Below, in pieces: positions 10,980 to 13,623 of a DNA stretch of 14,832 nt. Location of the stretch: the IMG/VR virus record IMGVR_UViG_2703719369_000026; one strand, 5' to 3'. This stretch comes from a virus (lineage: Duplodnaviria > Heunggongvirae > Uroviricota > Caudoviricetes). The position numbers were made by a program, and so were the translations under genes. Each line of letters opens with the position of its first letter. Position 1 is the stretch's first letter. A model generated the notes under the pieces. The model was not told where the DNA came from. It was given only the letters and a program-made list of their open reading frames with translations, and did not search any database.

Positions 10980-11369
10980 TTATCTGAATTTATCATGCCC
11001 CTCAACTCTGATTTTATTCATCTTGTTTACCGAATCGGGTATATCTGATAACTGTCCCGATAAGACTTTTTGTTTCGCCAGCATAATCTCTTTTTCAAGC
11101 TTTTGAAGTTCTTTTATATAGTCATTCTTCCCTTCTTCATCAGCCGGTGAAATGCTCTCAGGAAGACGCTTCATTGACTCATCTACAGCATCATCCATTC
11201 TGTCAAGAGCTTCAAGAAGCTCCTTTTTATCCATTGATGACTGAAGTACACTCATATTCCTTGCAAGAACTTGCATGCTTTCATCAAGTTCTTCTGCCAC
11301 TGTAATCCCCCCACACAAAAAATATAATGCCATACCACAGCTGATTATAACTTTATTGCTTTTCTGCAT
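10980..11369 (-). CDS. cybC: Cytochrome b562 family protein (periplasmic, four-helix-bundle haem protein)
   Basis: 129 aa with a signal peptide. A Met near the mature N-terminus (AEELDESMQVL) and a C-terminal His (EGHDKFR) parallel the Met and His haem ligands of E. coli cytochrome b562. AAGGAG ribosome-binding site. Lies 43 nt downstream of the catalase-peroxidase gene. Confidence 0.75.
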   Translation of the reverse strand: MQKSNKVIISCGMALYFLCGGITVAEELDESMQVLARNMSVLQSSMDKKELLEALDRMDDAVDESMKRLPESISPADEEGKNDYIKELQKLEKEIMLAKQKVLSGQLSDIPDSVNKMNKIRVEGHDKFR

Positions 11370-11381
11370 AATTTCTCCTTC

Positions 11382-11404
11382 ATGAGGGAGGTGCCCTCCC
11401 TCAT
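11382..11404 (-). other. Intercistronic stem-loop between the catalase-peroxidase and cytochrome b562 genes
   Basis: Perfect 9-10 bp inverted repeat (A)TGAGGGAGG-tgc-CCTCCCTCA(T). It is not followed by a U-run on the coding (minus) strand, so it is unlikely to be an efficient intrinsic terminator. Confidence 0.5.
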
Positions 11405-11412
11405 CAGTTTTA

Positions 11413-13623
11413 TCATTTATTGTTTAAATCAAACCGATCGCTATTCATAACTTTATTCCACGATTTAACAAAATCATGAATAAACTTATTTCTCGCATCA
11501 TCCGAGGCATATACTTCTGCCACCGCACGTAATTCAGGATTTGAACTGAAGATTAAATCAACAGAGGATGCTTTCCATTTTAATGCTCCCGTTTTACGAT
11601 CGAATCCATTGTATGTATCTTCTTTATCTGCTTTACTCCATCGTGTTGACATATCCAGCAGATTAACAAAAAACTTGTTATCCAGAACACCAGGGGTATC
11701 GGTAAACACTCCCAACGAAGAATTATTTGTATTAATATCCATTACCCGCAGACCACCCAGTAATGCCGTCATTTCAGGAACGGTGAGATCCAGCTGACTG
11801 GCTTTATCAATGAGGCTTTCAACCGGCGATATATGACTTCTGCTTTTTGAGTAATAATTTCTGAATCCATCTGCTGTCGGCTCCAGTACACTGAATGAGG
11901 CAACATCCGTCTGCTCCTGAGAGGCGTCAGTTCTTCCCGGAGTAAAGGGAATCTCAAGTTCCACCCCGGCTTTTCTGGCCGCATCTTCGATTGCAGCATT
12001 ACCCGAAAGAACAATTAAATCAGCCAACGACACTTTCTTTCCGTCAGACTGTTTTTTGTTAAATTCACGCTGTAATGAGGTCAGGGATGCCAGTACTTTC
12101 TTCAGTTTTTCAGGCTCATTAACTTCCCAGTTAATTTCGGGCTGTAACCTGATGCGGGCACCATTATTTCCCCCACGATAATCAGTCACACGAAATGTGG
12201 AAGCTGAAGCCCAGGCTGTCTTTATCAGCTCAGATGCAGGGATACCCAAATCCATAACCTGCTCTTTCAGCGACTTAATGTCTTTACCATCAATCATTGT
12301 ATAATCCGCCGCAGGAAGAGGATCCTGCCAGATAAATGATTCTGCAGGAACTTCATTACCAAGATATCGGGCTGCCGGTCCCATATCCCGGTGGGTCAGT
12401 TTAAACCATGCTCTTGCGAATGCCTGCTCAAAAGCTTTTGGATCATTCAGGAAACGGGTGGTTATTTTCTTATATTCAGGATCAACTTTAAGAGCAATAT
12501 CCGTCGTAAACATCATCAACGGATGCAGGACAGACGGATCATGCGCGTCCTGAACTATATTTGCCGCTTTTTTAGGCTTCCACTGATAAGCACCGGCAGG
12601 ACTCTTGTGCAGCTCCCATTCATATTTATATAAATTCTTCAGATACTGCATTGTGAACTGGGTTGGCGATGTCGACCAGGCTCCTTCCAGGCCACTGGTG
12701 ATGGTATATTTGCCGTTTCCTGTACCACATTTATTTTTCCATCCCAGTCCCTGCTCCTCCACAGGTGCACCATCAGGCCCTGCGCCAATACATTTTTCAG
12801 GAGACGCTGCACCATGTGCTTTACCAAATGTATGCCCTCCCGCGATCAGGGCCACAGTCTCCTCATCATCCATGGCCATACGTGAAAAAGCTTCCCTGAT
12901 ATCTTTCGCGGAAGCCAGAGGATCTGGTTTTCCACCGGGGCCTTCAGGATTGACATAAATAAGTCCCATCTGCGTGGCGGCAAGAGGTTTCTGAAGTTTC
13001 CCGTTTTTATCCCGGTTATCTGCAAGAGGCTTGTTGTCAGGCCCCCAGTATACCAGGTCCGACTCCCAGTCATCTTCTCTTCCGCCAGCAAATCCCAGCG
13101 TTTTAAATCCCATGGATTCAAGGGCAACATTACCAGTCAGGACCATCAGGTCTCCCCAGGAAATACTGGAGCCGTATTTTTTCTTGACTGGCCACAGCAA
13201 TCGACGGGCTTTATCCAGATTAACGTTATCCGGCCAGCTGTTCAGCGGTTCAAAACGTTGCTGACCACCACTGGCGCCTCCCCGGCCATCATATGTCCTG
13301 TATGTTCCGGCACCGTGCCAAGCCATACGAATAAAGAAAGGACCATAATGACCATAATCCGCAGGCCACCAATCCTGGGAAGTTGTCAGCAAATCTTTGA
13401 TATCTTTTTTCAGAGCCTCCATATCCAGCTGTTGAAATCTGGTGGCATAATCAAAATCAGCCCCCCAGGGATTTGATTCAGGGCTGTGTAATCTCAGAGG
13501 AGTTAAATCCAGTGTTTCTGGATAGTAGAAATTTTGAGTCTCTTTTTTATCAGCGGCTACAGCGGTAGAAAAGCTCCCCGATAGCGCCAGAAGAATCAGA
13601 ACAGGAAGAGTTTTTTTTATCAT
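11413..13623 (-). CDS. katP: Periplasmic catalase-peroxidase (KatG family with signal peptide; KatP/KatY type)
   Basis: 736 aa. N-terminal signal peptide ([24 protein letters not shown]). Distal-haem motif [13 protein letters not shown], proximal motif [10 protein letters not shown], and the two-domain KatG architecture alignable to E. coli KatG. The katP symbol rests on the signal peptide plus the IS-rich context and is not confirmed by a search. Confidence 0.9.

Follow-up and report, generated by a model that had tools for sequence, protein, structure and literature searches.

Why should a gene for an exported catalase-peroxidase be accompanied by a gene for a small cytochrome? The question is raised by a stretch of 14,832 nucleotides (in its full length, the window), filed as IMG/VR virus record IMGVR_UViG_2703719369_000026, in which katP, encoding a catalase-peroxidase of the KatG family, is followed on the same strand by the cytochrome b562-family gene L7018 (table 1). 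A first-pass annotation, made from the sequence alone, had described the two genes as an operon with a stem-loop between them, carried as cargo among insertion sequence (IS) remnants. Both genes are long-known and routinely annotated neighbors and markers of the virulence plasmid of enterohemorrhagic Escherichia coli (EHEC).

According to the present analysis, the katP region of this plasmid, pO157, is likely to form a module in which one promoter serves both KatP and b562, a stem-loop tunes their expression and b562 acts as the electron donor of KatP. The wider proposal is that exported KatGs of the KatP/KatY clade are donor-coupled periplasmic peroxidases and that the carrier encoded downstream (b562, cupredoxin or cytochrome c, depending on the lineage) is their physiological one-electron donor. 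This proposal is offered tentatively, and we give it rather less than even weight.

Identity of the Locus and Limits of the Conserved Module

The comparison of both proteins and of the surrounding DNA with pO157-type plasmids, which had been suggested in the first-pass annotation, returned KatP, b562 and pO157 itself. Positions 10485-14832 of the window are 100% identical to many pO157 plasmids (EHEC virulence plasmid; katP region), the records of which annotate both katP and cytochrome b562. Over this range the genes, the hairpin and the IS fragments are the same as in the katP/L7018 locus of E. coli O157:H7, nucleotide for nucleotide. The only difference concerns the left neighbor, where the window has a chromosomal prophage remnant and an N gap in place of the espP side. 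Of 5,426 complete E. coli genomes, 482 contain the katP and b562 pair, which is located on plasmids in 487 places and on the chromosome in three, mostly with at least 99% identity. Because hundreds of records already annotate the pair, it is a known E. coli O157:H7 plasmid locus and nothing new as a locus. New in this analysis are the exact conserved unit (10976-13712), the stem-loops of unrelated sequence that follow katG and the alternative carriers that occupy the same slot.

The limits of the unit were determined by blastn of pO157 against Raoultella-type and Citrobacter braakii loci (L085, L087 and L092). Identity of about 80% begins at position 13712, which lies 89 nt ahead of katP, and ends at 10976-10980, at the stop codon of b562; in three lineages with differing flanks, no homology is found beyond these points.

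Carriers Encoded Downstream of katG

The survey of the KatP clade comprised 11 distinct genomic contexts (68-100% identity), and in eight of them a small exported redox carrier is encoded directly downstream of katG on the same strand. This carrier is a b562 in six contexts, namely pO157-type E. coli, an 86% E. coli variant, Raoultella, C. braakii, Yersinia pseudotuberculosis (where b561 follows) and Salmonella. In the other two, Burkholderia ambifaria and Trinickia caryophylli, it is a cupredoxin (Pfam Copper-bind), the gene of which lies 54-57 nt after katG. The B. ambifaria protein is a pseudoazurin in NCBIfam (134.8 bits in TIGR02375, cut-off 109.85); this assignment covers the Burkholderia protein, and the one from Trinickia is classified by Pfam Copper-bind only.

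As a background sample, 80 KatG loci were taken from among the matches listed at 60-66% identity, with no Yersinia or E. coli loci in this set. A crude heuristic on the N-terminus divided them into about 38 of the signal-peptide type and about 42 of the cytoplasmic type. Two of the ~38 distant exported KatGs are followed by a class I cytochrome c gene, and another one has b561 nearby. None of the ~42 loci of cytoplasmic type matched the carrier queries (b562, cupredoxin, the cytochrome c of locus L008 and b561). In L008, a canonical terminator lies between katG and the cytochrome c gene. In a Salegentibacter metagenome-assembled genome (MAG), a cytoplasmic-type KatG is followed about 130 nt later by an unclassified exported open reading frame (ORF) of 315 aa with two CxxCH motifs (L049 4270-5217), possibly a protein similar to di-heme peroxidases.

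The Catalase-Peroxidase and the b562 Protein

A secreted enzyme of the KatG family had been predicted from the ORF, and the profile matches agree with this prediction. KatP matches the Pfam peroxidase family (PF00141) at 3e-73 and the NCBIfam equivalog for catalase/peroxidase HPI (TIGR00198) with 1082.7 bits (cut-off 770), and it aligns to solved KatG structures at E = 2e-285. The catalytic set is complete, with R99, W102 and H103 (RMAWH), the proximal H264 (GGHTFGK) and the adduct residues Y223 and M249; their roles are presumably those of the positions to which they map in the numbering of Mycobacterium tuberculosis KatG. The first 23 residues, which precede AD, are typical of a Sec signal peptide, and the cytoplasmic CPF motif is absent. 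By these features of its sequence, KatP is placed in the exported (periplasmic) KatP/KatY subgroup of KatG. Relatives with 86-91% identity occur in E. coli, Raoultella planticola and C. braakii, and KatY-type proteins with 72-75% identity in Yersinia, Salmonella, Citrobacter and Pantoea.

Similarly, the second gene proved to be of the b562 family, and it starts 43 nt after katP (gap 11370-11412), as had been described. The L7018 protein matches Pfam Cytochrom_B562 (PF07361) with 54.5 bits (cut-off 30) over profile positions 1-102 of 102. The first-pass annotation had allowed that the homologue may lack its heme ligands on exact alignment. Both are present: Met32 and His125 (precursor numbering) are invariant columns in alignment A1 and align with Met7 and His102 of CybC, and His125 is the sole histidine of the protein. 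The structural model (AlphaFold2 from the single sequence, pLDDT 73) is a four-helix bundle. Its Foldseek matches in the PDB have TM values of 0.81-0.83, and the listed ones that were checked were all b562, engineered derivatives or b562 (BRIL) fusions.

The relation to the canonical family is a distant one. L7018 shares 20-25% identity with CybC of E. coli, Salmonella and Yersinia, as against 57% with its counterparts in Raoultella and Citrobacter. An assignment as CybC orthologue was rejected, since the protein scores 63.1 bits against a cut-off of 130 in the NCBIfam equivalog PRK15058, with about 20% identity to E. coli CybC. It resembles that protein (PDB 256B) in fold and size, in having a signal peptide and in its Met/His pair of axial ligands; on the other side, the identity is low and the chromosomal cybC does not adjoin katG. 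By its sequence, L7018 is a divergent b562 subfamily. The predicted cleavage site of its signal peptide is aligned with that of CybC. A lipoprotein signal was also considered and rejected, because IISC (residues 8-11) leaves a hydrophobic stretch that is too short and the CybC cleavage site gives a far better alignment. The L7018 protein has been seen by proteomics in strain 86-24, where it was 6.3-fold higher in infected piglets (PMC3686733).

Other b562-family genes, with 45% and 55% identity, were found on avian-type E. coli IncF plasmids, beside a LysR regulator (L182 4965-5354), and in Salmonella on a plasmid that has a SodC-like superoxide dismutase close by (L183 5001-5390); neither locus has a katG or a remnant of one. 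About 100 plasmid records hold such b562 homologues.

The Intercistronic Stem-Loop

A perfect stem-loop had been noticed between the two genes. It has a stem of 10 bp (10/10 complementary; arms GAUGAGGGAGG/CCUCCCUCAU) and is the sole perfect inverted repeat with a short loop of that length in the window. It folds with an energy of -17.9 kcal/mol (z = -4.4), a value that none of 200 shuffled sequences reaches. On the sense strand the stem is followed by GAAGGAGAAAUU, without a U-tract. Therefore it is not a canonical terminator, and an intrinsic (Rho-independent) terminator on this strand was rejected.

The nine related loci that were folded (E. coli variants, Raoultella, C. braakii, Yersinia, Salmonella, Burkholderia and L008) all have a stem-loop after the katG stop codon, and its sequences are unrelated. 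In the relatives the hairpins are GC-rich and start a few bases past the stop codon. In an E. coli variant with 95.7% nucleotide identity the loop has changed. The arms are AGGGGGGGG/CCCCCCUU in the 86%-identity E. coli version, UUUCCGGGGGAG/CUCCCCCGGAAA in Raoultella and AGGGGGGC/GCCCCCU in C. braakii, and the stems are longer in Yersinia, Salmonella and Burkholderia. A canonical U-tract follows the hairpin only in the distant locus L008. The retention of a hairpin with differing sequences suggests selection for the structure, which lends indirect support to the first-pass idea that the hairpin could govern differential expression or mRNA stability.

Intercistronic stem-loops of the malEFG and pap operons shield the upstream mRNA from 3' exonucleases. 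They resemble the pO157 hairpin in being stable, GC-rich and without a U-tract between a highly expressed first gene and a downstream one. The pO157 hairpin differs in that it is not a repetitive extragenic palindromic (REP) element, and it is described here from its sequence and folding. An Rfam scan of the katP leader and the intercistronic region found no known RNA family, the sole Rfam match being the IS3 ALIL pseudoknot.

The strong ribosome-binding site that had been noted on the second gene is an AAGGAG located 5 nt upstream of the b562 ATG. The stem ends 13 nt upstream of this start codon, and an influence of the hairpin on ribosome access there is a matter of speculation.

Transcription of the Module and the Yersinia Parallel

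The conservation of the module starts, at its upstream end, with a CTAT-N7-ATAG element just upstream of a predicted -35 box. It is invariant in an alignment of five diverged katP upstream regions (A4), and it is a putative OxyR-type pair of half-sites or activator site that would abut a predicted sigma-70 promoter. The OxyR reading draws on the known motif of this regulator and on Uhlich 2009, by the title of which KatP is reportedly placed within OxyR-regulated peroxide resistance. The -10 box of the relatives is TATATA with a 17-nt spacer; across A4 the spacer is 17-18 nt and GGAG follows. An imperfect palindrome (13646-13677, minus strand) overlaps the predicted -10 region and the katP leader.

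The gap between katG and b562, which lie on the same strand, is 43 nt in pO157 and 39-138 nt in relatives. Co-transcription of katP and b562 in pO157 is likely, because of this short gap and the boundaries of the module, with a precedent in Yersinia. The pairing of katY with cyb genes in that genus, which had been mentioned in the first-pass annotation, is correct. In Y. pestis, katY-cybC-cybB was predicted to be an operon from expression correlation and was detected as one mRNA by reverse transcription PCR (PMC2231364). After exposure of Y. pseudotuberculosis to H2O2, katG, cybC and cybB were raised by 6.8, 6.7 and 7.5 log2 units, respectively (PMC13532240). The gene order katG-cybC-cybB is displayed in the Yersinia locus L090.

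This operon shares with pO157 the exported KatG (75% identical to KatP), the same-strand b562 and the stem-loop between them. It differs in having a third gene, cytochrome b561 (cybB), which pO157 lacks, and a b562 of the canonical CybC type, which is about 25% identical to the pO157 protein; unlike the pO157 locus, it is chromosomal and not bounded by ISs. No cybB was found in the pO157 locus, where the IS3 fragment begins 55 nt past the b562 stop codon, nor in the Raoultella, Citrobacter and Salmonella versions. In the Raoultella-type chromosomal locus (L085 6390-7363; also L087 and L100), about 970 nt without a called gene lie between b562 and a ShlB/TPS two-partner secretion pair, and no remnant of cybB was found in that stretch.

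A Proposed Electron Donor of KatP and the Alternatives

In the mechanism that we propose, both genes would be transcribed from one promoter upstream of katP, of OxyR type and inducible by peroxide, as in Yersinia katY-cybC-cybB. The stem-loop would serve as a protector of the mRNA 3' end or as a partial barrier, and not as a terminator, so keeping the katP message above that of b562 with read-through still allowed, and the strong ribosome-binding site of b562 would direct the translation of this gene. Once in the periplasm, reduced b562 would give single electrons to the oxidized intermediates of KatP as a peroxidatic donor. In Yersinia, quinol would recharge the b562 by way of the membrane cytochrome b561 CybB, and the pO157 protein would draw on a chromosomal reductant. 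This electron-donor reading stems from the fact that three unrelated small periplasmic carriers fill the same slot and that Yersinia adds a quinol-linked membrane cytochrome.

There is a known likeness in mechanism. Cytochrome c, azurin and pseudoazurin are electron donors of the bacterial di-heme cytochrome c peroxidase (Ccp), which is likewise a periplasmic peroxidase paired with a soluble one-electron carrier, and carriers of this kind (pseudoazurin and class I cytochrome c) adjoin exported KatGs in other lineages. On the other hand, KatG is a class I heme-b peroxidase-catalase that is unrelated to Ccp and can dispose of H2O2 without a donor, and its pairing with a carrier is known here from the genes. 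No paper on a functional link of KatG to b562 or pseudoazurin was found in the literature searched, and one may exist outside it. As far as we know, neither the physiological partner of cytochrome b562 nor the natural reductant of the KatG peroxidase activity has yet been defined. If true, the electron-donor reading would provide a natural function for both this activity and the b562 protein family; the comparative pattern provides a cheap and testable hypothesis on the reductant of the one and the partner of the other.

Several observations weigh against the module and its donor. The carrier is dispensable in several lineages: none comparable was found in three of the 11 KatP-clade contexts (Pantoea beijingensis, a Klebsiella aerogenes plasmid and a Methylococcaceae contig), and among the 80 listed loci a carrier is located beside only 2-3 of the ~38 more distant exported KatGs. 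A metagenome scan seeded with canonical CybC (A3) gave 80 loci, mostly redundant ones from gut enterobacteria, with no katG within 4 kb, and b562 homologues without katG occur on other plasmids with 45-55% identity. A gene for b561, by which the carrier would be recharged, is missing in pO157, and co-transcription there is drawn from homologues. A strict consensus scan found no sigma-70 promoter anywhere in 10750-14000; therefore the katP promoter is a prediction only, and an internal promoter of b562 is possible. Finally, the conservation of the hairpin refers to sequences that were each folded separately, and a terminator scan reports the palindrome on the plus strand only, with the tail CAGTTTTATC.

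The unlinked CybC genes, the plasmid homologues without katG and the partnerless katG genes of the clade, along with the stability of the stem-loop, would suit an adjacency that is merely historical, with the hairpin ending katP transcription, b562 expressed separately or barely and the two proteins not cooperating. We consider this unlikely. The stem is followed by GAAGGAGAAAUU and not by a U-tract, the conserved DNA stops exactly at the b562 stop codon in lineages with differing flanks, and non-homologous carriers take the same slot elsewhere. Moreover, the homologues in Yersinia share one mRNA and rise together under H2O2 (PMC2231364, PMC13532240), and the L7018 protein was found in vivo (PMC3686733).

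A different partnership would have b562 as a periplasmic heme carrier or chaperone: KatP would be exported unfolded through Sec, and heme b would be supplied or buffered by b562 outside the cytoplasm. Members of the b562 family bind heme b non-covalently through Met and His, and the conservation of both ligands in L7018, the predicted Sec-type signal peptides of the two proteins and the tight pairing of katG with b562 within the KatP subclade agree with such a role. It fits less well with the slot being filled by a cupredoxin in Burkholderia and Trinickia and by a cytochrome c with covalent heme in L008 and L033, because pseudoazurin and c-type cytochromes cannot supply heme b. The membrane b561 of the Yersinia operon also suits an electron path better than the delivery of heme, and several members of the clade have no partner at all; taken together, heme supply appears quite improbable. 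Even further from probable is that the palindrome is an intrinsic terminator of the plus strand, guarding the module from read-in out of the adjoining IS. The scan did flag that strand, and a T-rich sequence lies 5' of the stem (sense strand) in several relatives. However, the transposase frame of the IS3 fragment is on the minus strand and is thus not directed at the hairpin on the plus strand, chromosomal relatives without an IS nearby retain the hairpin, and the scan reported two terminator sites in total, where 2.5 are expected from shuffled sequence. Donation of electrons by the downstream carrier is the reading that we retain.

The Chimeric Window and Its IS Flanks

The window is a chimera joined across an IS gap, and inferences from the neighbors of katP within it would be wrong, be it the contrast with a replication module or the view of the genes as plasmid cargo. 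Positions 1-10924 are 100% identical to the O157:H7 chromosome, and of these 1-10484 are a P2-like prophage remnant that lies beside yecA in O157:H7 chromosomes. The remnant encodes an integrase, a replication endonuclease of gpA type (940 aa), and ParM with a partition protein; it resembles a phage-plasmid maintenance set within an integrated element. The IS3-family fragment (10485-10924) is the only part of the window common to the chromosomal and plasmid matches; within it, a run of 44 N (10696-10739) stands in place of 383 bp in both references. To the left of the run the window matches both the chromosomal and the plasmid IS copy perfectly, and to the right it is 100% identical to the plasmid copy versus 98.9% to the chromosomal one. 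The contiguous window was found in no record of the complete E. coli genome set or the plasmid collection. The most economical reading is that the junction of prophage and plasmid is probably a scaffold join through the repeated IS, and it may also be a real IS-mediated cointegrate.

The first-pass statement that the region is richer in AT than the replication module stands in part. The contrast is real, with a GC content of 0.38 in b562 and 0.46 in katP versus 0.55-0.58 in the replication genes to the left. That module, however, is DNA of the chromosomal P2-like prophage remnant beyond the N run and does not belong to the plasmid.

The IS remnants that had been placed on both sides are indeed there, with an IS3-family fragment on the left and IS91 and then IS600 fragments on the right. 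A composite transposon was rejected, as the flanks are truncated pseudogene fragments from three different IS families and not two intact copies of one IS.

Table 1. Coordinates of the features in the window and of the carrier genes in related loci
Feature	Position	Strand	Remarks
IS3-family (IS629/IS1203-like) fragment	10485-10924	minus	rve domain, ALIL pseudoknot, RefSeq annotation; site of the chromosome/plasmid join
Conserved module: promoter region, katP, hairpin, b562 (2.74 kb)	10976-13712	minus	blastn against L085, L087 and L092
Cytochrome b562-family gene, L7018 of pO157	10980-11369	minus	129-aa precursor; PF07361 at 2e-14
Shine-Dalgarno AAGGAG of b562	11375-11380	minus	5 nt before the ATG, 1 nt after the hairpin; read from the sequence
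Intercistronic stem-loop (10-bp stem, 3-nt loop)	11382-11404	minus	arms 11382-11391 / 11395-11404, 10/10 complementary; no sense-strand U-tract
katP	11413-13623	minus	736-aa ORF; 100% identical to pO157 katP
Predicted signal peptide of KatP, codons 1-23	13555-13623	minus	N-terminal sequence
Predicted sigma-70 promoter	13658-13687	minus	-35 TTGCAT 13687-13682, -10 TATACA 13663-13658; conserved blocks in A4
CTAT-N7-ATAG element	13698-13712	minus	invariant in A4; just upstream of the -35; conservation starts here
IS91-family transposase fragment, N-terminal zinc-binding domain only	~13985-14400	plus	PF14319 at 3e-20; RefSeq pseudogene
IS600 (IS3-family) transposase fragment	~14401-14832, past window end	plus	rve domain 1e-26; RefSeq annotation
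Cupredoxin gene with signal peptide, B. ambifaria	L093 7284-7742		beside exported KatG 70-71% identical to KatP
Cupredoxin gene with signal peptide, T. caryophylli	L101 5242-5703		beside exported KatG 70-71% identical to KatP
Class I cytochrome c (c550/c2-like) gene, Pseudomonadota MAG	L008 6221-6610		after exported KatG
Class I cytochrome c (c550/c2-like) gene, Novosphingobium	L033 6320-6694		after exported KatG

The ALIL pseudoknot, a frameshift stimulator of IS3-family transposases, is located at 10751-10867 on the minus strand (Rfam RF01497, 120 bits) and is intact in the otherwise truncated IS3 fragment. On the right side, a hypothetical ORF of 61 codons (WP_001302179.1; 13800-13985, plus strand) contains CPECGTVHWPDG and directly abuts the IS91 fragment; instead of being a gene, it may belong to the IS91-family remnant.

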